Assembly (NCBI GenBank): GCA_046582535.1
Contig: JAYGEF010000098.1
Location: forward strand, 1 to 32,605
DNA from: Alphaproteobacteria bacterium
GTDB lineage: Bacteria; Pseudomonadota; Alphaproteobacteria; JAAXGF01
Direction: 5' to 3'
DNA length: 32,605 bases
The notes under the pieces are model-generated. The model was not told the origin of the DNA, ran no database searches, and was given only the letters and a program-made list of their open reading frames with translations. Both the position numbers and the translations under genes were made by a program. Shown here piece after piece: positions 9,300-32,605 of this stretch. Positions within the stretch are counted from its first letter, which is position 1, and each line of letters opens with the position of its first letter.

Positions 9300-9446
9300 C
9301 ATAAGCGGCGACGCGCGGTCGCGCTTGCCGGCGGTCACAAACAGTGACCGCTGGTATGAGTCAGGCACGATTCCCATTGCGTCCGGTGAAATCCGGTGGT
9401 TTTGTAGCGCGCCCGTAACCGCTTCCACTCACCGCGAGACACCGCT

Positions 9447-11456: not shown

Positions 11457-11496
11457 GCAGACTGACTGTTCGCCGGCTATCGCGTATAAAGAGCTC

Positions 11497-12258: not shown

Positions 12259-12295
12259 CCGCGCCACACAGCACATTCCTGGTCACCGCCATGCC

Positions 12296-13988: not shown

Positions 13989-14085
13989 TGCCGCAGGCCT
14001 TGACGAGAAATTCTTCCAGGGCGCGGATCGGCGTCTCGTCGCCGAAGATGGCGGCGCGCCGGCTGGCAACCTGCTTGGCCATGCG

Positions 14086-18330: not shown

Positions 18331-19206
18331 CTAGCGAAACGCACCGAGACCATAGAGCCGCCAGATCAGACCCGGCGCCGCCAGTAACGGATGGCGGCGC
18401 TGCCAGGGCGTCGCCGTGACGGCAATGCCCGAATGGCGCTCGACCTTCCACAACGCATAATCCACCGCGCCATCAAACGTGAAGGCCGCCTTGATCAGGC
18501 GAGCCACGTTCAAAGCCTTGCCCGCCGCCCGGCGCAGCCACCATGGCGCCCCGCCGCCGCCCGCCAACGCCAGGGGCGTCAGGCGATCGTAGCGGGCGCG
18601 GTCGGCCTCGTAGAGTTGCCCGGCCCGGCCCGGGGGCTCGGGGCGCAGCTCGGCCCGGTAGGTCTCGGCAAAGGCCCGGGGCCACAACACCTCGGGCCGT
18701 GTTTCGTCCGGCAATAGCCGCCGGGTCACCGCCATCAGGGTTGTCACCGCGTCGGCCTGGGCCGCCGCGACCCGACGGCGCGCGTCGTCATCGGCGCTGT
18801 AGACAAGCCGCGCGGGCTGGGCGAAGCGGGCCCAGATCATCGGCTGCAGGGTCCCGGGCAAGGCTCCTTCGGCAAACTGATCGAGGCTCATCACCGCGTA
18901 TTTCACCCGCACCACCGCACCCTCCCAGGGCGTCTCCAGGTAGAACACGTTGGGCGGCAACAGCCGATTGGCGGCGGCGGCGAACCGGTTTTCATAGGCC
19001 TCGCCGTAGCGCCCGACCAGCACATAGAAGTCGAGCACGCCATGGGGGTCATCGTCGCGCAGGCAGGAGCCGTAGAACACCAGCGCCCGCACCGCATCGC
19101 CATGGCGCCCACGCACCACCTCGGCGGCGGCGCTCACCCACGGCCGCACCGGGGTCGCGGCCTCCTGGGCCAGCATCTCGATCAGGTCGTGGCGGGGCTC
19201 AGCCAT
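18331..19206 (-). CDS. Uncharacterised protein, possible Tam41/Mmp37-like phosphatidate cytidylyltransferase fold
   Basis: 291 aa. VFYGSCLRDDDPHGVLDFYVLV, NVFYLETPWEGAVVRVKYAVMSLDQF and IWARFAQPARLVY resemble, by memory only, the Tam41 blocks GYGSGVF / IDxIxGV / VYFNP...VKYGVVS / GRLQKPVKIL. Confidence 0.4.
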   Translation of the reverse strand: MAEPRHDLIEMLAQEAATPVRPWVSAAAEVVRGRHGDAVRALVFYGSCLRDDDPHGVLDFYVLVGRYGEAYENRFAAAANRLLPPNVFYLETPWEGAVVRVKYAVMSLDQFAEGALPGTLQPMIWARFAQPARLVYSADDDARRRVAAAQADAVTTLMAVTRRLLPDETRPEVLWPRAFAETYRAELRPEPPGRAGQLYEADRARYDRLTPLALAGGGGAPWWLRRAAGKALNVARLIKAAFTFDGAVDYALWKVERHSGIAVTATPWQRRHPLLAAPGLIWRLYGLGAFR

Positions 19207-19212
19207 GACACC

Positions 19213-20160
19213 TCAACAACGCAGGAACCGCAGCCGGCGGTCGGCTTCTAGAACCGCGGCCTCGGCCGGGTCCGGGTGGACAATCTGTCCGTCCAGAATC
19301 ATCGGGCAGTCGCCGCGGATGGTAACCCGGTTGGCGCAGCGGCTGCGATAGCCGGCCGCTTCCATCCACGGCCGCGGCCGCCCCCGCAGCATGGGCACCA
19401 GGGCGCGGGCCAGGCGGGCCGGCGGAAAGTCGATGGTGGTCAGGCGCAGCGCCCCCGGCCCATGGCCCCAGAACGGCCTGACGCCGAGAAGCAGGCGGTC
19501 GAGGGTGGTCGCCATGACCAGCAGAAAGCTGCCGCCCCGGCCGGCGCCGTCGTCAATCGCCAGGGTCATGTCGTCGCCACGATAAATGCCGTCCTCGCCG
19601 CCCCGGCGGATCAGGGCGCGGAGCAGGCTCGAGGCCAGGGAAAGCCCGACCACCGCGCGGCCGGTGGCGCCCCTGGGGTGGTACTTGGCGCGGGCCAGCA
19701 TGGTGCCGCGATAGAACGCGGCGGTGCCGAAGAACATACCGTGCAACGCCGCCGCGCCGCCGCCGGGATGAAGCGTCAGCACCGGATGGTCCATCGCCGT
19801 CAGGGGCGCACCGGTAAGCAACCGGGTGAGACCGTCCACCGGCCGGCCCTTGAGGCCGAGGTCATGGGCAATCAGGTTGGTTCGCCCGGCCGGCAGCAAG
19901 GCAAGGTCCGGCGTGCGCGCGAAGTCATGACTATTGAGAAGCGCGGTCATCACCCCTTGAACCGTGCCGTCGCCACCGTTGACCACCACCTGCTCGATGC
20001 CGCGCCGGGCAAAATCGGCCAGGGCCGTGGGCAGGGCCGACATGTGCTCAAGCTCCACATGGGCCACCGTGGAGTCCTGGGCCACGGCTTCGCGCACCGC
20101 CGCCAGGTCGCGCAGATTGCGGTGGCTGTACGGGTTGCTGATGACGCCGATGGCTGTCAT
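19213..20160 (-). CDS. Diacylglycerol-kinase-catalytic-domain lipid kinase (YegS/BmrU-like)
   Basis: From the ATG at 20160: MTAIGVISNPYSHRN...VVVNGGDGTVQGVMTALL...LALLPAGRTNLIAHDLG gives the DAGK_cat GGDGT and P.G..N motifs. The longer listed ORF would overlap lptG. Confidence 0.75.
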   Translation of the reverse strand: MTAIGVISNPYSHRNLRDLAAVREAVAQDSTVAHVELEHMSALPTALADFARRGIEQVVVNGGDGTVQGVMTALLNSHDFARTPDLALLPAGRTNLIAHDLGLKGRPVDGLTRLLTGAPLTAMDHPVLTLHPGGGAAALHGMFFGTAAFYRGTMLARAKYHPRGATGRAVVGLSLASSLLRALIRRGGEDGIYRGDDMTLAIDDGAGRGGSFLLVMATTLDRLLLGVRPFWGHGPGALRLTTIDFPPARLARALVPMLRGRPRPWMEAAGYRSRCANRVTIRGDCPMILDGQIVHPDPAEAAVLEADRRLRFLRC

Positions 20161-20167
20161 GGCGCTG

Positions 20168-21247
20168 TTACCGGCGCTCGCCATAAAACCCCAGAGCCGC
20201 GCCGGCGGCGGCAAAGGCCAGGCTCGGCGCCCAGGCGGCAAGGACGGGCGGCACCAATCCGGCCTCACCCACGGCCAGGGCAAAGCCGTCGAACACGAAA
20301 AAACAGAAGCCGATGGCGATGCCCAGGGTCAGAGTCGTGGCAGCGCCGCCGTGGCGCTGGAAGCGCTGGCTCAAGGGCACAGCGATAAGCACCATCAGCA
20401 GCGACGCCAGAGGCACGACAATCTTGCGGTTGAACCAGGTCTCATAAACGTAAAGCGGCCGGCTGCCGAACTCCGGCGCCCCCAGGTAACGCCAGACATC
20501 GCCCAAGGAGAGCTCGCGGGGATGGGCCATGAGAGTCGATAACAGGTCCGGCCGCAAGCGTCCGGCCCAGGGCAACCGGGCGATGGTCTCAACCGCGTTG
20601 GCGGCCACGTCATAGCGGGTCACGTCGTAAAGCACCCAGGCGCCGGCCTCGAGCACCACCGTGGCGGCGTCGATGCGGACGGTGAGAATGCCCGCCACGT
20701 CGCGTTGGAAAATGGTCACGTCCGTCAGACGAGCGCTGTCGCCGGTGTCCAATGTGCCGAGGCGAATGACGTCGTTGCCCTCGCGGAGCCAGGTTCGCCG
20801 GTCGCTCTCAGCCATGGCGCCGCTCTCCGCCGCAGCGCCATAGTCGGCCGCCGCCCAGGCGCGGAGCTCGGCGGCGGCCGGTGGCACGGCCGCGTCGTCG
20901 AGCCAGAAGTGAGCCGCGCCAAGCAGCCCGACCGCCGGTAGAAACGCCAGCACAAGCCGCCACGGCGATACCCCGGCGCCGAGCATGACGACGATCTCGC
21001 CATGGCGGACCAAGCTGACCAGGGTGAGCAGCGCGGCAATGAGCACGGAGAACGGCAACAGCTTGGAGACGATGACCGGCAGGCGCAGGGCAAAATAGCG
21101 CCACAGCGCCAACGCCCCGTCACCGGCCACCACCTCGTCCGCATGGGCCATCATGTCGAGCAGGGATGCCAGGGCCACCAGCCCGGCCAGCATCAGGGCG
21201 AAACGGGCCACGAACAGCCGGTTGAGATAGCGCGCGAACAAAGCCAT
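20168..21247 (-). CDS. lptG: LPS export ABC transporter permease LptG
   Basis: The start MALFARYLNRLFVARFALMLAGLV (ATG 21247) overlaps the lptF stop (TGATG). This is YjgP/YjgQ-family topology with a periplasmic middle domain. Confidence 0.8.
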   Translation of the reverse strand: MALFARYLNRLFVARFALMLAGLVALASLLDMMAHADEVVAGDGALALWRYFALRLPVIVSKLLPFSVLIAALLTLVSLVRHGEIVVMLGAGVSPWRLVLAFLPAVGLLGAAHFWLDDAAVPPAAAELRAWAAADYGAAAESGAMAESDRRTWLREGNDVIRLGTLDTGDSARLTDVTIFQRDVAGILTVRIDAATVVLEAGAWVLYDVTRYDVAANAVETIARLPWAGRLRPDLLSTLMAHPRELSLGDVWRYLGAPEFGSRPLYVYETWFNRKIVVPLASLLMVLIAVPLSQRFQRHGGAATTLTLGIAIGFCFFVFDGFALAVGEAGLVPPVLAAWAPSLAFAAAGAALGFYGERR

Positions 21248-22410
21248 CAGCCGCGCCGCGCCCCATCGCGTCTCATCGTCGCCATGGCGAGACGTTCCAC
21301 GATGCCGTCCACCGGATTGACCAGCCCGCCGGCACTGGCCTTGGCGAACAGGGCAGTGCTGGCAGCGGCAAACAGCGACAGCGGCAACCACAGGCCGAGC
21401 CACGGCGAAATATGGCCGAGCGCCACCATGGAGCCACCAAGCTGGAGAATCTTCTGGTACAGCACCAACGCCACCAAGCCGGCAACGATTCCGTAGGATC
21501 GCCGTGCCCGGCCGCCGCCAAGCCCCAGGGGAATGGCCAGCAGGGGCAGGAAAAGCATGGTCACCGTGCGCACCAGGCGGCCGTGAAATTCGGCATCCAT
21601 GGTGGCCATGGTGACGCCGGCCGGCGGCTGGTACCGGGCCGACCACAGCTCGGGCGAGGTGAGTTCGCGCTCGTCCTTGCCCCGCATCCTGTAGGACACC
21701 GAGCCGGCCGCGCCGATCGGCCGGCTAAGCTGATCGAAGGCCAGGCTGGTGATGCCGCCGCTGCCCATGCGAACCGTGACGCCGTCAACCAGATACAGCA
21801 CCGAGCGCATATGCTCGGTGGACGGCTTGAGAGCGCCACTGCGCGCCGTGGTGATGACCGAGCCGCCGGCCGCGGTTTCCTGATAGACGAACACCCGGGT
21901 CAGGCGCCGGCTGCCGACGCTGACCTGCTCGGCCATGAAGGTCATGCCGTCGGCCTCGACAAAGGCACCGTCTTCCAGGGCCGAAGCCAGGGAGGCATGG
22001 CCGATGGCATGGACCAGAGCACGGTAGCCATAGCGGCTGTAGGGCTGGACATAGGCGAAGATGACGGCGGTAACGATGGTCAGCACCACCGCCAGACCCA
22101 TGACCGGTACCAGCAACCGGGGCAGGGCGACGCCGGCGGCGGCGAAGGCCACCAGTTCACTGTCGCCGCTAAGCCGGTTGAAGGCCAGCAGCACGCCGAT
22201 AAAGAACGCCGCCGGCAGGGCGATACCCAGGTAATGAGGCACCAGGCTCATCATCATTTCGAAGACCCGAAGCATGGAGGTATCGCCGGTGGCCGCCAGA
22301 TCCATGATGCGCAACATACGCTCAAGCAACAGGGCGGCCAGGGCGACGCCGATGGTCGCCAGCAACGGCACCAGTATCAAACGCAGGAGGTAGCGGCCAA
22401 AAACCGTCAT
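21247..22410 (-). CDS. lptF: LPS export ABC transporter permease LptF
   Basis: The start MTVFGRYLLRLILVPLLATIGVALAALLLERMLRIMDL (ATG 22410) is the YjgP/YjgQ-family N-terminus. It is the first gene of the pair. Confidence 0.8.
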   Translation of the reverse strand: MTVFGRYLLRLILVPLLATIGVALAALLLERMLRIMDLAATGDTSMLRVFEMMMSLVPHYLGIALPAAFFIGVLLAFNRLSGDSELVAFAAAGVALPRLLVPVMGLAVVLTIVTAVIFAYVQPYSRYGYRALVHAIGHASLASALEDGAFVEADGMTFMAEQVSVGSRRLTRVFVYQETAAGGSVITTARSGALKPSTEHMRSVLYLVDGVTVRMGSGGITSLAFDQLSRPIGAAGSVSYRMRGKDERELTSPELWSARYQPPAGVTMATMDAEFHGRLVRTVTMLFLPLLAIPLGLGGGRARRSYGIVAGLVALVLYQKILQLGGSMVALGHISPWLGLWLPLSLFAAASTALFAKASAGGLVNPVDGIVERLAMATMRRDGARRG

Positions 22411-22546: not shown

Positions 22547-23017
22547 GTGTTGAAGGATTTGACCGCCCTGCGCCATGGGGCGCTGACAGCCATCGTTCTT
22601 GCAGTATTGGCCATCGGTAGCAATGCCATGGCCGCCTGCCAGTCATTGGACGGCGAGATCGAAGTCCGGGTCGATGCGGTGCGCAGTGCGTCGGGCAGTA
22701 TCGTCGCCGTGCTCTATGGCGACAACCCGGCGGATTTCCTCAAGAAGGGCAAGCGCCTCGACAAGGTCTTCGAACCGGCCCGGGAAGGGCTGGTCAGCGT
22801 CTGCCTGACGGCGCCCGCCCCCGGGATGTACGCGGTGGCGGTCTATCACGACGAAAACGGCAACAAAAAATTCGACAAGACCTGGATCGGCCTGCCCGAC
22901 GAGGGTTACGGGATCTCTAATAATCCAAAAATATTTTTGTCGGCGCCGGCCTTCGACGAAGCCAAGTTCGAAACGCTCAACGGACCCACAGTGATCGATA
23001 TTGTGGTCGGCTATTGA
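22547..23017 (+). CDS. DUF2141 domain secreted protein
   Basis: Signal-like N-terminus (AIVLAVLAIGSNAMAA). GSIVAVLYGD...AVAVYHDENGNKKFDKTWIGLPDEGYGISNNP...P.FDEAKF matches the DUF2141 pattern. GTG start after AAGGAG. Confidence 0.7.
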   Translation: MLKDLTALRHGALTAIVLAVLAIGSNAMAACQSLDGEIEVRVDAVRSASGSIVAVLYGDNPADFLKKGKRLDKVFEPAREGLVSVCLTAPAPGMYAVAVYHDENGNKKFDKTWIGLPDEGYGISNNPKIFLSAPAFDEAKFETLNGPTVIDIVVGY

Positions 23018-23056: not shown

Positions 23057-25480
23057 ATGTCAGTTCTGACCCGCGATGATGCGACCACGGCGGATCGGCC
23101 GCAGGCCCGGGACGGCCGTATTCCCGGCATGCGGACGCGGCCCGACTACCTGGTCCTCGGGGTTCGCGACGGTGTCAGCCCCAGCCCCAAGCCGCCCGTG
23201 CGCATCTTCCTCGGCACCGAGCCGTCGCAATTCCGGGCGGAACGCATTTTCGTGTGGTCCATCGAACAGGTGCGCGACCCGGCGCGGGTCTACGAAATCC
23301 ACCTGATGTCCGATCTCGCCGGCTTTCAGCGCCTGCTGTGGCTGACCGGCTTCACCAACTACCGCTTCGCCATTCCCCATCTCGCCGGGGCCAGCGGCCG
23401 CGCTATCTATAATGACGTCGATCAGATCTACCTGAGCGACCCGGCCGAATTGTTCGACCTCGACATGGCCGGCCACGGCTATCTCGCCATTGACGGCGCC
23501 AAACCCGACACCTCGGTCATGCTCATGGACTGTGAGCGCATGGCCAAGGTCTGGCCCCTGGAAAGCGCCCAGCAGGGCCGCAAAAACCGGCTTATGGCCG
23601 AGGCCCGCGCGGTGGCGGGCCTTGGGGGTCCGCTGCCGCCGGAATGGAATGCCCGCGATGAGGAATACAGCGCCGGGCAATCGAAACTACTCCACTACAC
23701 TGGCCTTCATACCCAGCCGTGGCGGCCGTTTCCCGAACGCTTCGTCTACTTCCGCAATCCCGTGGGCGCGGTGTGGGATGACCTGGAGCGCGCCGCCGAC
23801 CAGGTCCGCTATCAGATCTACGATCTCGATCGGCCGAGCGCCCGCTGTACGGATGTGGCGGCCCGCCTGGCTGACGCCGGTAGTCACCCGGTCACCGCCT
23901 ACGATGACGTTGATGACCTGGTGGCGGCGAGCGAAGCAAATTCAGTGCTTGAGTTCGGCATGGGCGTTGCCGCGCCGGTGTTCGATTTCGGCGCCGACAT
24001 CACGGTCCACCGCCATGACCCCGCTCATGCGGACTCCAACCCGCCGCCGGCGCGTTACCATGGGGTGGTCTGCCGCGGTGGTTTGAGCCTGCTGCCCGAC
24101 GCCGATGTCAGCTGGATCATGGCGGCGTTGTTCGCCCGCGCCGAGCGCTTCGTCCAGGCCACCATCACCGAGTTGTCGGGCCACTTGACCCTGGGCGACG
24201 GCAGCCGATTGAAGACCTGGCGCCGCGTGCCATCGTGGTGGTTTGCCCTCATGGAGGCCTGCGGCGCGCGCTATCCCGATTTGACCTGGCGGGTGAACAT
24301 TCATACCCGCCGCCACGGCATCTATACCCGCCACGGCGGCCGCAGCCATGGCACGCCGACGGTCTGGGTGCTGGACGATGGCAAGCCGGGCCACACCACT
24401 CAGTCGGTCGGCCTCGCCGAGGCCCTGGGCTGGCCCTACGAAATCAAGACACTGAACTTCACGGCCCTGGCCGGTCTCGGCACCGCGCTGCGCAGCCGGC
24501 TCGGCGCTACCCGCCTCGGTGTCGACTGCGCCGCCTCGGCCGAACTGGCGCCGCCGTGGCCCGATGTGGCCATCGCCACCGGCTGGCGGCCGGCCCCGGT
24601 AACCCGCTGGATCGGCGAGCAAAGCCGGGGCCGCACCCGCACCATCCAGTTGGGCCGCAAGGGCGGCCGGGTGGCGGATGTCTACGACATCGTGGTCGCC
24701 TGCGGCTATTTCCAGTTGCCCCTCCATCCCCGGCGCATCGAGACCTCGGCGCCGCTCAACCGGGTTACCGCCGCCAGCCTCGACGCGGCAGCGGCGGCCT
24801 GGCCCGACCTCTATGATCAGATGGCAAAGCCCCGCATCGCCCTGTTGTTCGGCGGCTCGAGCCGGCGTCACGATATCGCGCCCGAACTGGCCCGGCGCAT
24901 CGGGACCGAGGTCCGTGCCTTTGCCGATCAGGCCGGCGGCTCGATCTTCGCGGTGACCTCGCGGCGCAGCGGCAAGGCCGCCAGCGATGCCCTGGCCGAG
25001 GGATTCGGCGACGCCCTGGGCGAGACCGCGCGGATCGATCGCTGGCGCGACAATCGCCCGGACAACCCCTATCTCGCCTGCCTCGCCCTGGCCGATGTCA
25101 TCGTCGTCACCGGCGAAAGCGAATCCATGGTCGCCGAGGCTGCCGCCTGCGGCAAACCGGTCTACATCTACCCGATTCCGGAAAAGCCCCTGGGCTTCTG
25201 GACCCGCATCGAATCGTTCATTGTCGGCATTGCCCTGACCCGGCGTTATAACCGGCGCGGCACCCTCAAGCCCCAGCGCGGCCTGCGACGGTTCTGTGCC
25301 CGGCTCATCGGCCGTGGTCTGGTCCAGCCGCGGCGCAACCTGGACCTGCTTCACGAGGCGCTGATCGCGCGCGGTATGGCCAAGTTTTTCGGCCCGCCCC
25401 TGGAGACCGGCAAGCGCCCGGCGCTGCACGAGGCCGACGAGGTCGCCGCCGAGATACGCCGGCGGCTGAACCTGTCATGA
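23057..25480 (+). CDS. 807-aa multidomain protein: N-terminal GT8-like glycosyltransferase, central methyltransferase-like segment, C-terminal ELM1/DUF1022-like domain
   Basis: GT8 is supported by YRFAIPHL...AIYNDVDQIYLSDPAELFDLD (DxD) and LLHYTGLHTQPWRP (resembles H..G..KPW). The central part has VLEFGMG...GVVCRGGLSLLPDADVSWIMAALF (class-I MTase-like, weak). The C-terminal part starts VWVLDDGKPGHTTQSVGLAEALGW and ends in a GT-B-like ADVIVVTGESESMVAEAAACGKPVYIY. Confidence 0.65.
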   Translation: MSVLTRDDATTADRPQARDGRIPGMRTRPDYLVLGVRDGVSPSPKPPVRIFLGTEPSQFRAERIFVWSIEQVRDPARVYEIHLMSDLAGFQRLLWLTGFTNYRFAIPHLAGASGRAIYNDVDQIYLSDPAELFDLDMAGHGYLAIDGAKPDTSVMLMDCERMAKVWPLESAQQGRKNRLMAEARAVAGLGGPLPPEWNARDEEYSAGQSKLLHYTGLHTQPWRPFPERFVYFRNPVGAVWDDLERAADQVRYQIYDLDRPSARCTDVAARLADAGSHPVTAYDDVDDLVAASEANSVLEFGMGVAAPVFDFGADITVHRHDPAHADSNPPPARYHGVVCRGGLSLLPDADVSWIMAALFARAERFVQATITELSGHLTLGDGSRLKTWRRVPSWWFALMEACGARYPDLTWRVNIHTRRHGIYTRHGGRSHGTPTVWVLDDGKPGHTTQSVGLAEALGWPYEIKTLNFTALAGLGTALRSRLGATRLGVDCAASAELAPPWPDVAIATGWRPAPVTRWIGEQSRGRTRTIQLGRKGGRVADVYDIVVACGYFQLPLHPRRIETSAPLNRVTAASLDAAAAAWPDLYDQMAKPRIALLFGGSSRRHDIAPELARRIGTEVRAFADQAGGSIFAVTSRRSGKAASDALAEGFGDALGETARIDRWRDNRPDNPYLACLALADVIVVTGESESMVAEAAACGKPVYIYPIPEKPLGFWTRIESFIVGIALTRRYNRRGTLKPQRGLRRFCARLIGRGLVQPRRNLDLLHEALIARGMAKFFGPPLETGKRPALHEADEVAAEIRRRLNLS

Positions 25481-26199
25481 GTTATCTCGACTTCAGCCGC
25501 CTCGACGCCATCGAGACCGCCGCGTTCCAGGGCCAGTCGCCCTATCCCTGGCTCAACCCCCAGGGCCTGTTGACCGCCGACGGCTTCCGCCGCCTGACCG
25601 ATACCCTGCCCGACGTCAGCCGCTTCGAGCGGGTCTTCGACAAGGCCCGGGCCCATGGCCAGCGAAGCCACGACCGCTACACCCTGGAATATCACAAGGG
25701 CCTTGATCTGCCGCCGGCCTGGCGCGATTTCATGGCCGAAATGGAGAGCGAGCGCTACCAGCGCTTCATCCGGCGGTTGTTCGGCCGCGGCCGGCTTCGT
25801 CTGCGTTATCACTGGCACTACACGCCCACCGGCTGCTCAGTGTCGCCCCACTGCGACGGCCGCGACAAGCTCGGCTCGCACATCTTCTATCTCAACACCG
25901 CCGACGACTGGCGGGCGGAATGGGGCGGCGAGACCGTGGTGCTCGACGATGGCGGCCGGTTCAAACGCTCATCGGCGCCGGCCTTCGAGGACTTCGATAG
26001 CGCCGTCGCCGCCGAGACCATGGACAACCACAGTTTCATCTTCGCCCGCCGGGGCAACTCGTGGCACGGGGTGCGCGAAATCGACTGCCCCGAGGACCGC
26101 TTGCGCAAGGTCTTCATCGTGGTGGTCGAGGACCGCATTCTCGGCTTGCGGCGACGGATGATGGATCGGTTACGCCACCCATGGTCCGTGGGTGGCTGA
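25477..26199 (+). CDS. 2OG-Fe(II) oxygenase, prolyl-4-hydroxylase-like superfamily
   Basis: SPHCDGRDKLGSHIFYLN...WRAEWGGETVVLDD...NSWHGVREI...RLRKVFIV gives the H-x-D, distal H and basic residue. ATGA overlap with the upstream gene (25477-25480). Confidence 0.6.
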   Translation: MSYLDFSRLDAIETAAFQGQSPYPWLNPQGLLTADGFRRLTDTLPDVSRFERVFDKARAHGQRSHDRYTLEYHKGLDLPPAWRDFMAEMESERYQRFIRRLFGRGRLRLRYHWHYTPTGCSVSPHCDGRDKLGSHIFYLNTADDWRAEWGGETVVLDDGGRFKRSSAPAFEDFDSAVAAETMDNHSFIFARRGNSWHGVREIDCPEDRLRKVFIVVVEDRILGLRRRMMDRLRHPWSVGG

Positions 26200-27430
26200 C
26201 GTGACCGCAGACGTTCCGCCAACACCGGGCGAGCACATTGCGTTGTTCGCCCCGGTGCTCAACGACAGCGGTGTCGCGAAGGTCATGACCACTCTCGCTG
26301 ACGCCTTCGCCGCCCGCGGCTACCGTGTCGATTTGGTGGTAGGCCGAATCGAGAACAATGGAACCCACCGGCTGCTTGGCGGCGCGAACATGGTCCAGGT
26401 GGCGCAAAGCTCGCTTGCACGAGGCTGGTTCGACGCCGCACGCGCCGACCCAGGTGGAATCGGCACCCTGATCCACGCCGTGGTGCGTTCGGGCAAGCCA
26501 GGGTCCAGGTTGCGTTATTTGCCGGGCCTCATCACCTATTTGCAAACGGTACGGCCGACCGTCGTTGTCTCGGCCGGTACCGTCGCCAATCTGATGGCTC
26601 TGTGGGCACGTGGTCTCGCCGGCGTTTCGACCTGGGTCGTCGCCTGCGAACACAACAACCTCAGCGGAAAGGTGCGTGGCGGGCGTGTTCGTGGCACAGG
26701 CAGGCTACGCGTCGTCGCGCGGTTGGTTGGCCGCGTGTACGACCGCGCCGACTCCATCGTTGCCGTATCCGACGGTGTTGCCGACGATTTGGCGGTGGTG
26801 GCCGGGCTTTCGCGCGAGAGGATCGCGACAATCCCCAATCCGGTGGTCACTCCCGATCTGCTCGCGAGCGCACGGGCGCCACTCGAACACCCCTGGTTCG
26901 CGCCTGGCGAACCGCCGGTATTGCTGGGGGTCGGACGGCTCGTTCCAGCCAAGGATTTCGCGACTCTCCTCAAAGCATTCGCACAAGTACGGGCAGCGCG
27001 CGGCGCGCGGCTTTTGATCCTTGGAGAGGGTGCCGAGCGGGCGGCGCTCGAGGCGCTCGCCGATGAGCTGGGGATCGGCACGGATGTGGCGTTTCCGGGG
27101 TATGTGGCAAATCCCTACGCCTATATGTCGCGCGCCGCAGCGTTCGTACTGTCGTCCCGCTGGGAGGGACTGGTAAGTGTTCTCATCGAGGCGATGGCCT
27201 GCGGCTGCCCAGTTGTAAGCACCGATTGCCCGAGCGGTCCGTTCGAAATCCTAAACGGCGGCGCCCTTGGGCCGCTCGTCCCCGTCGGTGACCATGCCGC
27301 GCTCGGTGTCGCCATCTGCGCCACGCTCGACGGCCCGTCCGACCCCTCGCGCTTGCGCGCGCGTGCGCGCGCGTTTTCGCTCGAAACAAGTGCTGTGCGC
27401 TATCTGGAAGAAATCAATGGAGCCCGCTGA
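26192..27430 (+). CDS. GT4-family (group 1, GT-B) glycosyltransferase
   Basis: GVGRLVPAKDF..LLKAF, LLILGEG and SSRWEGLVSVLIEAMACGCPVVSTDCPSGP (E-x7-E). The GTG start is at 26192 or 26201 and overlaps or abuts the upstream stop. Confidence 0.85.
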   Translation: MADVTADVPPTPGEHIALFAPVLNDSGVAKVMTTLADAFAARGYRVDLVVGRIENNGTHRLLGGANMVQVAQSSLARGWFDAARADPGGIGTLIHAVVRSGKPGSRLRYLPGLITYLQTVRPTVVVSAGTVANLMALWARGLAGVSTWVVACEHNNLSGKVRGGRVRGTGRLRVVARLVGRVYDRADSIVAVSDGVADDLAVVAGLSRERIATIPNPVVTPDLLASARAPLEHPWFAPGEPPVLLGVGRLVPAKDFATLLKAFAQVRAARGARLLILGEGAERAALEALADELGIGTDVAFPGYVANPYAYMSRAAAFVLSSRWEGLVSVLIEAMACGCPVVSTDCPSGPFEILNGGALGPLVPVGDHAALGVAICATLDGPSDPSRLRARARAFSLETSAVRYLEEINGAR

Positions 27431-27514
27431 TTTGGACGCCGCCGGACGCCAGGGTACGCGACGGCCGTCACTCATGTTCCCAGCTTGGCGCGACATTCGG
27501 ATGGGAGCCGCGCC

Positions 27515-28462
27515 ATGACCCAAATGCGAAACATCTGCGTCACCTTCCTCGGCGCTGGGCGGAGCGGCACCAGCCTGTCGACCCGGGGCCTGGCCGCCGT
27601 CGGCGTCGATCTTGGCGACCGCCTGCGCCGGGGCTGGGGCAAGAACCCCACCGGCTTCTTCGAGGACCGCGATCTGTTGGCGCTCAACCAGCGGCTCAAG
27701 CACACTCTCGGCATTCGCGGCGACAGCGTGCGGCTGATCGCGGCCGAGGAATACGACAGCCCGGCCATCGAAGCCTTGCGGCACCAGGCCATCCACACCA
27801 TCCGCCGCCGCTTCGGCCAGTGCCCGCTGTGGGGTTACAAGTACGGTCGCACCCTGCGGCTGATGCCGTTCTGGGAGCCGGTCTACGACGCCCTTGATCT
27901 CGACATGCGCTATCTGGTGGCGATCCGCAATCCGTTGAGTGTCGCCGCCTCGCGGGGCAAGCTCGACCCTCGGCGCGGGGTCCAGGAAACCGCCGATCAC
28001 GAATGGCTGGTCAATGTGGTGCCCCATTTCGCCCGAGCCCGGGGACGACCCATGGCGGTGGTCGATTATGATCGCCTGATGATCGATCCCCGGCGCGAGT
28101 TGGCCCGCATGGCCCGGAACCTCACCCTGCCCGATCCCGACCCAGCGGCCATCGACATCTATTGTAGTGAATTCCTGCGTCCCGGCATGCGCCACACTCA
28201 CTTCTCGGTGGCGGACCTCGATGACGGGCGAGTCGACCCTCTGGTGCGCGACGCCTACCGCTGGCTTGACCGCCTGGCCGGCGCCGAGATCACCGCTGAC
28301 GACCCGGCCCTGTGGGACGACTGGGCGCGTATCGCCGCCGCCGTCGAGGCCATGGGCCCAAACCTAGCCGAAATCGACCGAGCCGAGGCCGCCCGCCGCT
28401 GGGCCGAGCGCGGCCCACGCCAAGCCTACCAGTGGCTACGGCGGAAAATGAGAGGTGGCTAG
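27515..28462 (+). CDS. Sulfotransferase-family protein
   Basis: From the ATG at 27515: 5'-PSB-like loop FLGAGRSGTSLS and 3'-PB-like VAIRNPLSVAASR. The listed TTG at 27485 is also possible. Confidence 0.65.
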   Translation: MTQMRNICVTFLGAGRSGTSLSTRGLAAVGVDLGDRLRRGWGKNPTGFFEDRDLLALNQRLKHTLGIRGDSVRLIAAEEYDSPAIEALRHQAIHTIRRRFGQCPLWGYKYGRTLRLMPFWEPVYDALDLDMRYLVAIRNPLSVAASRGKLDPRRGVQETADHEWLVNVVPHFARARGRPMAVVDYDRLMIDPRRELARMARNLTLPDPDPAAIDIYCSEFLRPGMRHTHFSVADLDDGRVDPLVRDAYRWLDRLAGAEITADDPALWDDWARIAAAVEAMGPNLAEIDRAEAARRWAERGPRQAYQWLRRKMRGG

Positions 28463-28636: not shown

Positions 28637-29512
28637 TCATTTGATTGCCCAGCCGACGGCTATCTTGAACGACCGCTTCAAATTGAATCGGTAAAACCCT
28701 GAGCGACTCGTCCGTGAAGTATGCCATAGCAACCATGGCAAAAGAACGAGCTTGTCGAACAACGATAGCCCGCTTGCCTGATAAATTCTTATAGTGAACA
28801 CGAGGTAACGGGCCATAAACCGAAATCGAGCACCGAGCGAAGCCGGTCTATAGAGTTGACTCGACGTGTCCGTCACCTCGCTATAAAAATGTGCCTCGGG
28901 AACACCGCGGATCAAATCGCCGAGAATAAACGGCAGCAGCATCAGGCGGTCCGACGCCCATACATAGCCGAATTCGGTTGCCACCTCCTGCACGGCGCGA
29001 AGCCGTGCGGTGCGAAAAAGGCCATAGATCCACACAGCTTCCGGTCGCCGCAACAATGCAACGATGCGAGACCGGCGCGCCCGTTCAGCAAAATCCGGGC
29101 ACGGCCGGGTGGCGTTGCGAGACTTCGGCGATCCGTCCATCTCCACACGAGTGGCGTTTGCACAGGCCAGCGCGCAATCGCGATTGGCGTCGAGCATGGC
29201 GTATAGCCGATCGAGATAGTTTGGGCTCAACCAGTCGTCGCAAGCGTGCCACATAAAATAGTCGGTCTCGGCCAGGTCGAGCACATAGCTGAAATTGCCC
29301 AAGGCGCCGATGTTCTCGTCATGGCGATGGACGGTCACACGAGAATCCCGCGCCGCCCAGGCGTCGAGCGCCTCGGCGGTCCCATCGGTCGAGCCGTTGT
29401 CGGCGGCGATGACCACGAAGTCGCCGCGCGTCTGGGCCTCAAGGCCGGCGATGGCGCGGTCGAGGGTGGCGGCGCCGTTGTAAACCGGCATGCCGACGGT
29501 GATGCGGGCCAC
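28637..29512 (-). CDS. GT2-family glycosyltransferase
   Basis: ITVGMPVYNGAATLDRAIAGLEAQTRGDFVVIAADNGSTDGTAE is the GT-A N-terminus, followed by a DxD-like ACDDW. The GTG start overlaps the upstream TAG by 1 nt. Confidence 0.85.
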   Translation of the reverse strand: MARITVGMPVYNGAATLDRAIAGLEAQTRGDFVVIAADNGSTDGTAEALDAWAARDSRVTVHRHDENIGALGNFSYVLDLAETDYFMWHACDDWLSPNYLDRLYAMLDANRDCALACANATRVEMDGSPKSRNATRPCPDFAERARRSRIVALLRRPEAVWIYGLFRTARLRAVQEVATEFGYVWASDRLMLLPFILGDLIRGVPEAHFYSEVTDTSSQLYRPASLGARFRFMARYLVFTIRIYQASGLSLFDKLVLLPWLLWHTSRTSRSGFYRFNLKRSFKIAVGWAIK

Positions 29513-30279
29513 TAGGAAATTCGCCGCAGATAGGCGCCCGGCCAGTAGGTGATGGGCCGGTTGAGAGCGCTGTCGTTGAACTGGAAGCCCGGCGTTTCGA
29601 CCGCGAAATCGTCGCGCTCAGCGGCGAAGTCGCGGGCCGCCTCGGTGGGGTTGTCGGAAACCCAGGACGCCTCGCCGCCGGGGACCTGGGCGAGTTCGCT
29701 CATGATGCCGTCGGTTGCCACCAGATAGGACCCCATGGTGACCAGCGAGGCATAGAGCCGGCACTCGGCGAGCACATGGTCGCGGCTGTGATTGGAATCG
29801 AGAATCACCAGCACCTTGTCGCCGGGTTCGATGCAGCGCGACACCTGGTCGAACACCCCGGGGTCGGTCGAGCTGCCCTCGATCAGGGTGATGCGCGACG
29901 CCAGGCGGTGGCCTTCGATGGCCTGGCGGTTGGCCACCCGGATATCGATGTCGACGCCGACCACACGGCCATTACTCCCAGTCATTCCCATGGCCTCGAA
30001 CAGGCTGGCATAGAAGATCAGCGAGCCGCCCCGGGCGATACCGGTCTCAACGATGACATCGGGGCGCAGGTTGGACACCACCTCCTGAATACGCAGCATG
30101 TCCTCGGGCAACTGGATCACCGGCAGGCCGAGCCAGGTGAAAGTATAGGAATAGCGTTGCGCCCAGCCGACCTTGACCCACAGGTCCGAGAGCAGCTCGA
30201 AGGCCGGCTTGCTGTACAGCGGCACCTCGCCATCGCTGGTGGCGATGGTCTCGGTGTCCGTATCGATGGTGATTTTCAT
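29512..30279 (-). CDS. CmcI-family (cephalosporin hydroxylase-like) SAM-dependent methyltransferase
   Basis: FTWLGLPVIQLPEDMLRIQEVVSNLRPDVIVETGIARGGSLIFYA...VVGVDIDI...VLVILDSNHSRDHVL is collinear with PF04989-type proteins. Confidence 0.8.
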   Translation of the reverse strand: MKITIDTDTETIATSDGEVPLYSKPAFELLSDLWVKVGWAQRYSYTFTWLGLPVIQLPEDMLRIQEVVSNLRPDVIVETGIARGGSLIFYASLFEAMGMTGSNGRVVGVDIDIRVANRQAIEGHRLASRITLIEGSSTDPGVFDQVSRCIEPGDKVLVILDSNHSRDHVLAECRLYASLVTMGSYLVATDGIMSELAQVPGGEASWVSDNPTEAARDFAAERDDFAVETPGFQFNDSALNRPITYWPGAYLRRIS

Positions 30280-30289
30280 GGGTCTCTCT

Positions 30290-31456
30290 TCAGGTCAGGT
30301 CGATCAGGTCCAGCGCCGCGCCGGCCGCGCCGACCATGGCTTCGATTTCGGGACGATAATTGGGGTTTGTCAGCACCGCTACGTCGACGCCGCGATCGAG
30401 CGCCTCCTGGAGGCCGACGATTTTATGGCCGCCACCGGCAATGTAGCCGCCCTGCTTGTTGGGGTTGATGTCGATGACACAGTCGAACCTGTCGCCAACC
30501 GGGTCGAGCAGGTTGGCCAGGGTGACGCCCTTGGCCCCGGCCCCCCAGATGGCGGCGCGGCGGCCCGCCGCCAGGGTGCCGAGTTCATGGTCGAGGCGCG
30601 CCAGGGTCGTCGCTTCCCGGGCGCCGAATTGGGCGGCGGCGGCGGCCAGCGCGCCGGCATCGATCGGGGGCGCCACGGCGTCATCCGCAAGGCGGGCTTC
30701 GAGCCAGAGGTACTGGCCACCGAACACATGGTCGACCCGGGCGACGGTGAACCCGGCCGCTTCGAACGCCGCCGTGAGCGACGATGCGGTGAAGTAGTTG
30801 CAGTGCTCGTAGAACAAATCCCAGATCGCGTCCCCGGCCATGATCCATTCAAAACCCGGGGTCTCGAAATAGACCCTCGCGTGGCGCGAGTTGGCCAGGG
30901 CCAGGCGCACCGTGTTGAGCATGGCCACCGGATCGGGCACGTGCTCGATGACGTGGCGGCAGACCACCACGTCGGCGACCTCATGGGCGCAATCGGCGTC
31001 ATAGAACCGGCGTTCGAAGCGCAGCCGGTCTTCGGCCGCCGGGCCGCCATAGCTGGGGTCAAAGCCGATCCCGGTATTGTCCAGGGCCGGGTCGTCGACC
31101 AGGCGGCGCAGGAAATAGCCGTCACCGCAGCCGACATCGACAATCCGGCGCCCCCGCACTCCGTCGTCGTCCAACAGGCGGCGCACCAGACCATCCACAT
31201 AGTCACGAAACGCCGGCGAATGGGTCTGCGCGTTGTCGTATTCGGCGCCGTAGGACAGGCGACCGCTATCGAACGCCCGATTGTGGACGAAGCCGCAACC
31301 ATGGCAGGCGACCAGGACCAAATCTCCACGGGTCACCGCGCGGGCTGCCGCGCGGTCGGCCAGCAGGGCGTTCTGATGCACTGGCACACCCTCGCGTCGG
31401 ACAAATTCCATGGGATCGGGCGCGCCACACAAGGGGCATGACCATGGCCCGCTCAC
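30290..31456 (-). CDS. NDP-hexose C-methyltransferase-like class I SAM methyltransferase (Zn-ribbon N-domain plus C-methyltransferase C-domain)
   Basis: CPLCG...CHGCGFVHN is the zinc ribbon, VDVGCGDGYFLRRL is SAM motif I, and the C-terminal AIWGAGAKGVTLANLL...VIDINPNKQG is Rossmann-like as in TylC3-type enzymes. The GTG at 31456 forms a GTGA overlap with the upstream stop. The GTG at 31474 is also open. Confidence 0.7.
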   Translation of the reverse strand: MSGPWSCPLCGAPDPMEFVRREGVPVHQNALLADRAAARAVTRGDLVLVACHGCGFVHNRAFDSGRLSYGAEYDNAQTHSPAFRDYVDGLVRRLLDDDGVRGRRIVDVGCGDGYFLRRLVDDPALDNTGIGFDPSYGGPAAEDRLRFERRFYDADCAHEVADVVVCRHVIEHVPDPVAMLNTVRLALANSRHARVYFETPGFEWIMAGDAIWDLFYEHCNYFTASSLTAAFEAAGFTVARVDHVFGGQYLWLEARLADDAVAPPIDAGALAAAAAQFGAREATTLARLDHELGTLAAGRRAAIWGAGAKGVTLANLLDPVGDRFDCVIDINPNKQGGYIAGGGHKIVGLQEALDRGVDVAVLTNPNYRPEIEAMVGAAGAALDLIDLT

Positions 31457-32340
31457 AACGTCGCCCGCCACCACGCCACCGTGTCCGCCAGGCCGCTTTC
31501 GAGGTCGTAGCGTGGGGTAAAACCGACCTCGCCGCGCAATCGCGATACATCGGCCACCAGCCGGGCCGGAGAAGGCGAACTTTCACCCGCTGAAATGTCC
31601 ACGCCAATCATCCGGGCGACATCGGTGATGGTCACGCCCTTGCCCGAGGCGATGTTGACCGGCCCCGCAACGTCCGAGGCGAGCAACGCTGCGAACGCGG
31701 CGCCGGCATCGGCGACGTGGAGAAAGTCGCGCATCGCCGCGGGGTCGTTGAGGGTCGCCAGCTCGCCCGCGAGCATGGCGCGGATAATCGACGGCACCAA
31801 CCGGGCTTCGCCCTCATGGGGACCGTAGAGCAGGAACAGCCGGCCCCAGGCCAGGCCCAGGCCGCTGGCGCGTGCCTCGCTACTGGCCGCCTCGAAGGTC
31901 GCGAGCTTGGCCTGGCCGTAGGCCGTGGCCGGCCGGCGTGGCGTCTCGGTTTCGTGACAATCGCCGTAGCCCAGCGCTTCGGTCGACCAGTCGTATTCGG
32001 CACAGCTTCCGGCCAGCACCGCGCGGCCGCCGCCGCTGTGGCGAAACCGGCGCAGCAGGTCCAGGGTGGCCTCGGTCCAGGCCGGGTTCGAAGGCGCCGA
32101 CCAAAAATAGCCGTGGCGGGTTTCCCAGGCGAGATGAAGCAGATGGCTCGGCCGCACCGTATCCAACAACGCCACGCGCGCCGCGCCGTAGAGCAGGTCG
32201 GCCCGGTGCCAGACGACCGTATCATCAGGGGGCGGGGTGCGCGCCGCCGCGTGAACCGTGAACCCCCTGGCGGTCAGGGCGGCCACCGCCTGGCGGCCGA
32301 CGAAGCCGCCGGCGCCGGTCACCAGCACCGTGCCGCTCAC
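31453..32340 (-). CDS. Extended-SDR NAD(P)-dependent sugar epimerase/reductase
   Basis: From the GTG at 32340: SGTVLVTGAGGFVGRQAV (TGxxGxxG) and the catalytic YGQAK. GTGA overlap with the RmlC-like stop. The upstream part of the listed 376-aa ORF is out of frame with the real RmlC-like coding region. Confidence 0.8.
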   Translation of the reverse strand: MSGTVLVTGAGGFVGRQAVAALTARGFTVHAAARTPPPDDTVVWHRADLLYGAARVALLDTVRPSHLLHLAWETRHGYFWSAPSNPAWTEATLDLLRRFRHSGGGRAVLAGSCAEYDWSTEALGYGDCHETETPRRPATAYGQAKLATFEAASSEARASGLGLAWGRLFLLYGPHEGEARLVPSIIRAMLAGELATLNDPAAMRDFLHVADAGAAFAALLASDVAGPVNIASGKGVTITDVARMIGVDISAGESSPSPARLVADVSRLRGEVGFTPRYDLESGLADTVAWWRATL

Positions 32341-32605
32341 CGTATGAAATCCGGCAGGGCGGCGTCGCGCTCGGAAATTACCTCGGGCTCGAAGGGCCAC
32401 TCGATGGCGAAGGCCGGGTCGTTCCAGCGCACGCCGCGGGCCAGGTCGGGGACAAAGGCGGCGCCCATGAGGTAATAGACCTCGCTGTGGTCCGCGAGGG
32501 TCAGCAGGCCGTGGGCGCAGCCCGCCGGAATATAGAGGGCGCGATGATTGTCGGCGCTGAGCTCGGCCCCGACCCATTGGCAATAGCTGGCTGAGTCCGG
32601 GCGCA
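32337..32605 (-). CDS. dTDP-4-dehydrorhamnose 3,5-epimerase (RmlC)-family cupin; 3' part only, 5' end outside the window
   Basis: A frame not reported as a separate ORF gives ...YCQWVGAELSADNHRALYIPAGCAHGLLTLADHSEVYYLMGAAFVPDLARGVRWNDPAFAIEWPFEP...stop. This matches the RmlC C-terminal half. Confidence 0.75.
   Translation of the reverse strand, partial: RPDSASYCQWVGAELSADNHRALYIPAGCAHGLLTLADHSEVYYLMGAAFVPDLARGVRWNDPAFAIEWPFEPEVISERDAALPDFIR

Follow-up and report, generated by a model that had tools for sequence, protein, structure and literature searches.

Our analysis of the window, by which we mean the whole 32,605-nucleotide (nt) stretch (positions 1–32,605) of contig JAYGEF010000098.1 from an Alphaproteobacteria bacterium, concerns a gene for an 807-residue, three-module glycosyltransferase fusion and the 2-oxoglutarate (2OG)/Fe(II) oxygenase gene that follows it (Table 1). 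The fusion gene is one uninterrupted open reading frame (ORF), as the preliminary description of the sequence had stated, and its three-module architecture is conserved among its relatives. Direct reading of the junction gives ...ctg tca TGA at the end of the fusion gene, overlapping ATG agt tat... at the start of the oxygenase gene, and thus the ATGA stop/start overlap described at positions 25477–25480 is real. The translation contains all four motifs that had been quoted from it: NDVDQ at residues 119–123, HYTGLHTQPW at residues 213–222, VLEFGMG at residues 296–302, and VWVLDDGKPGHTTQSVGLAEALGW at residues 437–460. The protein has no transmembrane segment (maximum KD19 = 1.34), and its AlphaFold model, calculated with 36 homologues as input, has a pLDDT of 85.3 and a pTM of 0.85. 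On the basis of sequence and model, the fusion is most likely a soluble or peripheral cytoplasmic enzyme with two predicted glycosyltransferase active sites.

Relatives of the fusion number more than 1,700 in total, and a scan of one genome per species found them encoded in 348 species-level genomes, mostly metagenome-assembled genomes (MAGs) of Nitrospirales, Binatia, and Alpha-, Gamma-, and Deltaproteobacteria. Full-length homologues number more than 120 (47–92% identity, 97–100% query coverage); the closest relative, 91% identical, comes from the MAG of an uncultured alphaproteobacterium (locus L001). For a census of neighbourhoods we fetched 80 loci around fusion relatives (among them 30 Nitrospirota, 19 Binatia-like, and 29 proteobacterial or other loci; loci here and below bear a number prefixed L), and 78 of the 80 carry an intact ORF of ~800 residues. 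It had been considered that orthologues might always be split, with this copy explained by an assembly or frameshift error joining separate genes. Because the fusion is encoded in 348 genomes, has >120 full-length homologues, and is intact in 78 of 80 loci, across many assemblies and phyla, it is a genuine, widely conserved, ancient gene, and an assembly artefact is excluded. Split versions do occur in some genomes, as an artefact would lead one to expect, but the model is confident across the domain junctions, and the residual probability of a joining error is negligible.

The split versions follow the module boundaries. An exhaustive search with the N-terminal half as query returned 993 relatives, mostly fusions of 750–840 residues, together with some stand-alone proteins of 430–490 residues that end directly after the middle domain. 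In loci L090 and L091, a stand-alone N-terminal half, a Wzx-like flippase, and a stand-alone 345-residue ELM1 protein are encoded in one operon, which supports a functional coupling of the two halves. A stand-alone half comprising the GT8-like and methyltransferase-like domains (446 residues, 43% identical) is also present at L086:8001-9341 and L087:3962-5302, where its surroundings are of a housekeeping kind: it lies between genes for cytochrome oxidase assembly (SURF1) and for threonine synthase, and lipid or glycan genes are absent from the neighbourhood.

The C-terminal module (module 3) is a GT-B domain of the ELM1/DUF1022 (GtrOC1) type, as had been proposed. In particular, residues 444–709 match PF06258 (E = 3.9e-55; 187.5 bits; profile positions 1–257 of 304), and all 36 members in our survey of the fusion family match the same profile. 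The Pfam gathering cutoffs that apply here and below are 27 bits for PF06258, 24.3 bits for PF01501, 27 bits for PF13640, and 21–30 bits for the methyltransferase models. Foldseek aligns the module with GT-B enzymes (EarP, TreT, plant UGTs, SpnP, and WecB), the motif VTGxSESM..E is invariant in the 36-member alignment, and fusion relatives are annotated by NCBI as "ELM1/GtrOC1 family putative glycosyltransferase". Module 3 is 35% identical to a stand-alone ELM1 paralogue that adjoins the fusion in other genomes. This paralogue (~390 residues; PF06258 E = 2.8e-59) is found at L070:6963-8141, at L084:8807-9967, and in 11 other loci, often lying between the fusion and the oxygenase in proteobacterial loci; such clusters therefore contain two ELM1-type domains.

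The N-terminal module (module 1) resembles the GT-A domains of GT8 and GT24 enzymes. Foldseek matches in the PDB include 3tzt (TMt 0.58–0.60), LgtC (1g9r; TMt 0.51–0.52), WbbM (6u4b), GlyE, and the catalytic domain of the GT24 enzyme UGGT. Residues N119, D120, D122, and Q123 (N-D-x-D-Q) and residues H213, T215, Q220, P221, and W222 are invariant in the 36 sequences. The GT8 domain of the preliminary description thus stands as regards the GT-A fold and the invariant DxD, but not as a Pfam assignment: residues 100–143 match PF01501 (GT8) at 15.2 bits versus the cutoff of 24.3, a point against the GT8 label, and 14 of the 36 relatives match it at E ≤ 0.1 (best E = 1.5e-4). Module 1 is like the GT8 enzymes LgtC and WaaI/J in its GT-A fold and its DxD and perhaps in its C-terminal motif, of the H-x-x-G-x-x-x-P-W type, and unlike them in missing the Pfam GT8 threshold. 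In the canonical GT8 C-terminal motif, HxxGxxKPW, the His is a metal ligand and the Lys goes to the diphosphate; the invariant Q220 stands where classical GT8 enzymes presumably have this Lys. The H..T....QPW loop has a pLDDT below 50 in the model. Module 1 is predicted to hold a metal-dependent, retaining glycosyltransferase site.

The middle module (module 2) is methyltransferase-like, as had been noted, but its S-adenosylmethionine (SAM) motif is unconserved. Specifically, the glycine-rich SAM loop of motif I (GxGxG) varies among LEFGMG, LEYRWS, LTLRLN, VHYDFV, and others, and two members of the family have no strands β1–β2/motif I region. The window protein has no Pfam methyltransferase match; methyltransferase models are matched by 2 to 6 of the 36 relatives, always below threshold (12–19 bits), with the Methyltransf_23/25/12/11 matches (E = 0.002–0.2) covering the motif II–III part only (profile positions ~45–120). 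Alignment with hhalign of module 2 to the window's own methyltransferase gives P = 0.003 over 18 columns only, at motif II. The order of secondary-structure elements in the model is compatible with a Rossmann-like sheet ending in an antiparallel β6–β7 hairpin, and the module accompanies module 1 in stand-alone proteins of 430–450 residues. The profile matches and the variable motif I suggest that module 2 is probably a degenerate, non-catalytic methyltransferase-like scaffold. Searches of the PDB with the entire fusion gave no matches for the single sequence and, with a profile, spurious uS2 matches and a weak match to WbbM (E = 0.5).

The oxygenase matches PF13640 (2OG-FeII_Oxy_3) at 28.1 bits versus the cutoff of 27 and belongs to a family of more than 2,100 members (57–89% identity), all unnamed. 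Invariant in this family are an HxD...H triad (H125, D127, and H197), R210 as the basic residue for 2OG binding, and many basic residues; there is no hydrophobic stretch. The model (pLDDT 90.9) matches double-stranded β-helix folds at a probability of 1.00. The top fold matches are PasI (9ei7; TMt 0.79, E = 2e-12) and PolD (9blq), with TMt ranging from 0.73 to 0.79, and the weaker ones, with TM-scores of about 0.6–0.7, are Tpa1, a Pseudomonas putida prolyl 4-hydroxylase (P4H), and PHD2. A sequence-profile search of the PDB returned only PasI (E = 1.9e-9) and PolD (E = 8.8e-5), and no prolyl hydroxylase at E ≤ 1. Of the P4H-type oxygenase first described, the 2OG/Fe(II) family and the iron triad hold, whereas the prolyl hydroxylase assignment is not seen at the sequence level. 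PasI was crystallised with 5-amino-6-hydroxy-octosyl acid 2-phosphate (PDB title), and PolD is proposed to be an α-ketoglutarate dioxygenase in the cleavage of the C6′–C7′ bond of octosyl acid. These enzymes of high-carbon sugar nucleoside antibiotic pathways, whose substrates are phosphorylated sugar acids, are only ~21% identical to our oxygenase, whose family is, unlike theirs, tied to glycolipid clusters: its neighbours are glycosyltransferases, a phosphoglycerate mutase, and lipid genes, with no PolH-like radical-SAM or nucleoside-antibiotic genes nearby.

The association between oxygenase and fusion is conserved, with a homologue of the oxygenase (50–90% identity) lying downstream of the fusion on the same strand in 40 of the 80 loci. 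The homologue directly abuts the fusion in ~14 loci, follows it after one ~790-bp gene in ~18, and is separated from it by the stand-alone ELM1 paralogue in 4. The ~790-bp gene encodes a true 2,3-bisphosphoglycerate-dependent phosphoglycerate mutase (dPGM; NF010713, 315.8 bits versus 305). On a Nitrospirales contig the mutase–oxygenase pair lies ~16 kb downstream of the fusion, and in L085 the oxygenase comes immediately after a GT8-like half that stands alone, without an ELM1 domain. Soluble and rich in basic residues, the PasI/PolD-like oxygenase is associated both with dPGM and with the GT8-like half; its probable target is an anionic part of the head group or an activated precursor of that part. 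As a separate observation, dPGM is tightly paired with the oxygenase in 22 loci (L027:10430-11227 and 21 others) and also at L082:9236-9991.

The genes that recur around the fusion are lipid genes. In Nitrospirota, the order is GNAT (cluster c9), fatty-acid hydroxylase, HIT, fatty acyl-AMP ligase (779 bits), CerR-like SDR, serine palmitoyltransferase (Spt), and fusion, with Spt directly upstream of the fusion in 27 of the 30 loci. Spt, for which a proteobacterial representative (L004) scores 660.7 bits against NF047599 (cutoff 500), also lies directly upstream of the fusion in 8 of the 29 proteobacterial or other loci, which makes 35 of the 80 loci overall with an adjacent Spt. In the 19 Binatia-like loci, the recurrent genes are NTP_transf_3 (17 loci), CDP-OH_P_transf (15 loci), and an MsbA-like ABC exporter (17 loci), and the fusion is followed by dPGM and oxygenase genes in 15 loci each. 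The proteobacterial or other loci mix the Nitrospirota-like and Binatia-like gene sets in varying orders, and since their gene orders differ they can be treated as independent observations. For example, L004 has Spt, LptF, LptG, fatty-acid hydroxylase, GNAT, NTP_transf_3, fusion, and oxygenase; and L061 has ligase, SDR, Spt, fusion, and oxygenase. A further locus, L084, has, in one block, LptG, LptF, Spt, GT2, fusion, ELM1, oxygenase, sulfotransferase-like, and ABC exporter genes, together with GNAT (PF00583, 30.6 bits), NTP_transf_3, LpxO-like, and lipid A acyltransferase genes. The conserved neighbours are genes for sphingolipid synthesis, head-group activation, and export, not for protein modification.

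Two observations concern individual groups of loci. Just downstream of Spt and the fusion, Nitrospirales loci carry genes for a surface-carbohydrate protein of TIGR04396, an oxidoreductase of the GFO/IDH type, a synthase of the NeuB family fused to a cupin domain, a HAD phosphatase, and a cytidylyltransferase resembling PseF (examples at L047:13023-14606, L038:15323-16039, and L021:10479-11873); this nonulosonic-acid-type pathway hints at a sphingolipid bearing an ulosonic acid in Nitrospira. Locus L028 (contig CAXQPB010000161.1) is labelled Nitrosopumilus sp., an archaeon, and carries Spt, cpgC-like, kinase, NTP_transf_3, ABC, and fusion genes; because the label is archaeal yet the cluster bacterial, this MAG is probably mis-binned.

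In the window itself, the fusion and oxygenase are part of a glycosylation operon, which forms the right flank and comprises DUF2141, fusion, oxygenase, GT4, and sulfotransferase-like genes, followed by convergent GT2, methyltransferase (two), and epimerase genes (Table 1). The GT4 and sulfotransferase genes had already been described as following the oxygenase, and a GT4 gene and a sulfotransferase-like gene are present there. Homologues of the GT4 occur in at least 10 related loci, and the DUF2141 gene is conserved in the closest relatives only (L001–L003). The sulfotransferase-like protein (~325 residues) and its relatives match Sulfotransfer_3 over the full profile but below threshold (E = 0.09, 0.002, and 5e-4); its homologues (46–90% identity) occur in at least 14 loci, recurrently as neighbours of the oxygenase (for example, L001:14010-15008 and L084:10784-11770). 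Its translation contains the motifs RSGTS and RNPLSVAAS, which resemble those of the 3′-phosphoadenosine-5′-phosphosulfate (PAPS) loop, and a sulfated glycolipid would therefore be implied.

Table 1. Coordinates of the fusion gene, its modules, and the neighbouring genes in the window
Feature	Coordinates	Strand	Basis or remark
807-aa three-module glycosyltransferase fusion	23057-25480 (stop included)	+	uninterrupted ORF, ATG start
Module 1, residues ~25-260, GT8/GT24-like GT-A domain with DxD	23129-23836	+	fold and motifs
Module 2, residues ~261-432, degenerate class-I methyltransferase-like domain	23837-24352	+	sub-threshold profile matches
Module 3, residues ~433-807, ELM1/DUF1022 (GtrOC1-type) GT-B domain	24353-25477	+	PF06258
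240-aa 2OG/Fe(II) oxygenase, PasI/PolD-like	25477-26199	+	ATG start overlaps fusion stop
GT4 glycosyltransferase	26192-27430	+	Glycos_transf_1 E=2.9e-32, Glyco_trans_4_4; 8-nt overlap with oxygenase
Sulfotransferase-like protein (cluster c27)	27485-28462	+	full-length sub-threshold Sulfotransfer_3
GT2 glycosyltransferase, convergent	28637-29512	-	Glycos_transf_2 E=2e-23
CmcI/rhamnosyl O-methyltransferase-like methyltransferase	29512-30279	-	PF04989 E=1.3e-67
Methyltransf_23 plus C-methyltransferase C-terminal domain	30290-31474	-	PF13489 E=5.4e-25, PF08484
NAD-dependent sugar epimerase/dehydratase	31453-32583	-	PF01370 E=1.5e-32
DUF2141 protein, 39 nt upstream of fusion	22547-23017	+	PF09912 E=2e-30
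LptF-like permease, divergent from fusion operon	21247-22410	-	TIGR04407 222.3 bits, cutoff 230
LptG-like permease	20168-21247	-	TIGR04408 258.2 bits, cutoff 240
DAGK_cat lipid kinase, CpgB-like, ceramide kinase candidate	19213-20283	-	PF00781 E=1.5e-13
291-aa protein in CpgC position (Tam41-type-like)	18331-19206	-	gene position, homologue name

The left flank of the window is a module of cpgC-like, cpgB-like, lptG, and lptF genes, likened to their namesakes by family and position. The pairing of kinase and 291-aa protein is conserved in 8 related loci, three of which (L028, L072, and L078) have NTP_transf_3, kinase, 291-aa homologue, and Spt genes in that order. The 291-aa protein matches nothing in Pfam or NCBIfam, and the fusion, the oxygenase, the sulfotransferase-like protein, and the GNAT of cluster c9 likewise lack an NCBIfam model. 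The 291-aa family has 4,941 members, of which the Dongia soli member is named "Phosphatidate cytidylyltransferase" in UniRef, an annotation of the Tam41 type like the one published for CpgC. In Dongia soli, where the DAGK_cat gene has the same position as the window's kinase, this homologue occupies the cpgC slot of a complete Caulobacter-type cluster with CDP-OH_P_transf, DAGK_cat, and the homologue itself, then convergent Spt, ACP, CerR-like, and AMP-binding genes, together with LptF/G, two NTP transferases, and two ABC exporters. The window's LptF falls in one BLAST cluster with the LptF gene that follows Spt in L004. BLAST cluster c54, a candidate for the DAGK kinase, was rejected as such: it is the 291-aa, cpgC-position family, and the kinase makes up the separate cluster c61.

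Some details of the left flank and of the region beyond it are recorded here as side observations. With the start codons as placed here, the lptF stop and lptG start share base 21247, and the kinase ORF overlaps the end of lptG (20168-20283); the start of the kinase is probably internal, near 20184, the TTG start of the longest ORF at 20283 being too far upstream. A gene for an NAD-epimerase (15903-16892, + strand), which had clustered with a Nitrospirales gene and was for that reason a candidate CerR, was rejected: it encodes HpnA (TIGR03466, 522 bits versus 368). This hopanoid-associated sugar epimerase gene, ~1.4 kb from the cpgC-like gene, belongs to a second membrane-lipid pathway nearby. 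Positions 11218-15852 hold a GT7-type gene (β-1,4-galactosyltransferase-like; PF02709 and PF13733) next to two GT41 (O-GlcNAc-transferase-like) genes, one of which carries tetratricopeptide repeats; GT7-type genes are probably uncommon in bacteria. The most GC-rich part of the window (70%) contains overlapping ORFs on opposite strands, 9429-11528 (− strand, 699 residues) and 9447-11456 (+ strand, 669 residues), of which the minus-strand ORF has no Pfam match.

The experimentally defined system most relevant to these neighbourhoods is the Caulobacter crescentus cluster CC_1152–CC_1168, which makes ceramide phosphoglycerate (CPG and CPG2). This cluster comprises spt, acp, cerR, aas (acyl-ACP synthetase), bcerS, cpgA–D, lptC2/F2/G2, and a flippase. 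Specifically, cpgA encodes a PgsA/CDP-OH_P_transf protein; cpgB encodes a ceramide kinase of the DAGK/LCB5 type; cpgC (CC_1161) encodes a Tam41-like protein without a Pfam domain (PMC11324152, S1 Text); and cpgD and CC_1153 encode nucleotidyltransferases, CpgD making CDP-glycerate with a preference for D-2-phosphoglycerate. The clusters around the fusion are like it in having Spt, acyl ligase, CerR-like SDR, GNAT, DAGK-type kinase, Tam41-like cpgC-position protein, CDP-OH_P_transf, NTP transferases, LptF/G, and exporters. They are unlike it in that no GT8-like, ELM1-like, or 2OG-oxygenase gene has been described in Caulobacter, and in that CPG and CPG2 are unglycosylated, whereas the present clusters contain, in addition, between two and five glycosyltransferases as well as a sulfotransferase-like gene. 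The preference of CpgD for D-2-phosphoglycerate provides a rationale for a cluster-encoded phosphoglycerate mutase. In this connection, the CpgD paper describes a dedicated source of the 2-phosphoglycerate needed for CDP-glycerate as still missing, and dPGM may be that source.

Architecture, conservation, fold assignments, intact catalytic motifs, and neighbourhoods lead us to a reading that we hold to be somewhat better than an even chance, namely that the fusion and its coupled oxygenase are a head-group-building core for a bacterial outer-membrane sphingolipid; for it we infer a lipid acceptor, donor sugars, an order of steps, and an oxygenase substrate as follows. Ceramide would be made by Spt, acyl carrier protein (ACP), acyl-ACP ligase, CerR-like reductase, and GNAT (bCerS-like), and would be phosphorylated or extended by the cpgB-like, cpgC-like, and CDP-alcohol-type enzymes. 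Working on the cytoplasmic side of the inner membrane, the fusion would then add two successive sugars to this lipid, which could be ceramide itself, ceramide-1-phosphate, or a CPG-like species; the middle domain would be a scaffold. Transfer at the ELM1 site would be of the GT-B type, and a precedent in Acinetobacter baumannii (see below) and the CMP-sugar genes in Nitrospirales loci make an acidic or ulosonic sugar possible there. Further additions could be made by the neighbouring GT4, GT2, and possible sulfotransferase, and the oxygenase would oxidatively modify the anionic part of the head group, be it a sugar acid or phosphoglycerate, or else an activated precursor of that part. An MsbA-like or Wzx-like exporter would flip the product, and the LptF/LptG pair of the cluster would take it outward. 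By analogy, the plant GT8 enzyme IPUT1, which glucuronosylates inositol-phosphoceramide to make glycosyl inositol phosphorylceramide (GIPC; PMC9317492), is a functional precedent for a GT8 enzyme that acts on a phosphosphingolipid head group; no common family membership is claimed.

Several points weigh against this reading. In the 32.6-kb window there is no Spt by tblastn, and there are no acyl ligase, GNAT, dPGM, NTP_transf_3, or CDP-OH_P_transf genes; the link of this locus to sphingolipids rests on the cpgB/cpgC-like pair, LptF/G, and the family-level association. In the window, the scores of LptF and LptG are near those expected of the canonical lipopolysaccharide (LPS) exporter, which the two may simply be, and a sphingolipid role of Lpt paralogues is itself a proposal in the literature. 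Among the relatives, the 30 Nitrospirota loci are phylogenetically non-independent, and in the Binatia-like set (19 loci) Spt is absent within 8 kb of the fusion. In the searchable literature we found no characterised member of the fusion or oxygenase family, in agreement with the preliminary description, which did not recognise a characterised system, and no link of ELM1 or the fusion to sphingolipids or Nitrospira.

The role of the only bacterial ELM1-like protein studied experimentally raises the main alternative. That protein, 2903 (GtrOC1) of A. baumannii, is needed together with LpsB for Kdo2-lipid A to receive KdoIII/GlcNAcA, and in its predicted structure it is similar to WaaA and other GT-B enzymes. 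The evidence, genetic and by structural similarity, places it in glycolipid, namely lipooligosaccharide (LOS) core, assembly, which speaks for a glycolipid role of the fusion; its presumed acceptor, however, is Kdo2-lipid A and not ceramide, a further point against a sphingolipid acceptor. Like module 3, 2903 matches PF06258 and takes part, with a second glycosyltransferase, in a glycolipid core step; unlike module 3, it is a single-domain protein of a lipid A-core locus, whereas module 3 is fused to a GT8-like half and found in sphingolipid-type clusters. By this precedent, the pair could be an LPS/LOS core module in which lipid A-core receives a Kdo-type or uronic-acid residue from the ELM1-like domain and an α-hexose from the GT8-like domain, the oxygenase tailors a core sugar as KdoO does, and export is by MsbA and LptFG. 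Frequent LptF/G and MsbA-like neighbours, the near-canonical Lpt scores in the window, the LpxO-like and lipid A acyltransferase genes in L084, the role of GT8 folds such as LgtC in LOS synthesis and of the classical GT8 enzymes WaaI/J, the NeuB-like and CMP-sugar synthetase genes downstream in Nitrospirales, and the lack of Spt near the Binatia copies all fit such a module. We nevertheless judge it unlikely, as lpx, waaA, kds, and heptosyltransferase genes are absent from the window and do not recur among the census loci; the genes that recur most tightly with the fusion are those for Spt, acyl ligase, a CerR-like SDR, and a GNAT and the cpgB/cpgC-like genes; and no Kdo-hydroxylase-type family appears among Pfam matches of the oxygenase at E ≤ 0.1, on which ground a KdoO-like role was rejected. 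Nor is the pair a well-annotated LPS-core module, an identity that had been named among the outcomes that would refute the preliminary description.

Two glycosyltransferases with a non-catalytic spacer between them are typical of polymerising enzymes such as WbbM and K4CP, and WbbM is among the fold and sequence matches of the fusion. The fusion could accordingly be imagined as a bifunctional polymerase for capsule, exopolysaccharide, or O-antigen, with alternating transferases and an oxygenase that acts on a nucleotide-sugar precursor, and the GT4, GT2, sugar methyltransferase, and epimerase genes downstream in the window do look like a glycan cluster. This is improbable, because Wzy/Wzz, ABC-2 transporter, and initiating phosphoglycosyltransferase genes do not recur, the partners being lipid-synthesis genes, and because ~50% identity over 800 residues across phyla argues for one fixed acceptor rather than for variable polysaccharide chemistry. 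Protein glycosylation, in which the oxygenase would hydroxylate proline or another residue and the fusion would glycosylate the hydroxy-amino acid, was the logic put forward in the preliminary description. The oxygenase is indeed in 2OG-FeII_Oxy_3, a P4H-type family, with Tpa1, the P. putida P4H, and PHD2 as weaker fold matches, and the nominal top fold match of the fusion is a protein-modifying GT-B enzyme, EarP. The EarP match, however, has a TMt of only 0.42 and is no better than generic GT-B matches; PasI and PolD are the sole profile matches of the oxygenase and have better TM-scores than the P4H-type matches; and the conserved neighbourhoods are lipid-centred, with no conserved candidate target protein near the fusion in the census. 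This idea was not borne out, and we regard it as very improbable.

On the sphingolipid reading, the fusion would be a further form of glycolipid head-group glycosyltransferase in bacterial sphingolipid clusters. A further-reaching version, which is possible but clearly short of an even chance, is that the fusion and oxygenase are signature enzymes of an undescribed class of outer-membrane lipid with a ceramide-phosphate (CPG-like) anchor and an oligosaccharide; within this version, the oligosaccharide may be sulfated, methylated, or ulosonic-acid-containing, and the ELM1 fold may be that of a lipid head-group glycosyltransferase. If so, the GIPCs of plants and fungi would have a counterpart in bacteria, or the lipid would be an "LPS surrogate" anchored by a sphingolipid; nitrifying Nitrospira, Binatia, and many uncultured Proteobacteria would make it, and a PasI/PolD-like enzyme would be the first 2OG oxygenase known to act on the head group of a sphingolipid. 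If the GT8-like half makes α-linked glycosylceramides, the products could matter for CD1d/natural killer T-cell immunology.

Bacterial sphingolipid head-group chemistry is still being worked out in Caulobacter, where several steps are without enzymes. Our analysis links two large uncharacterised families, the fusion with more than 1,700 relatives and the oxygenase with more than 2,100, to the sphingolipid pathway; it suggests for the "mitochondrial fission ELM1" fold in bacteria a function that can be tested; and it predicts that environmentally important lineages make complex glycosylated sphingolipids.

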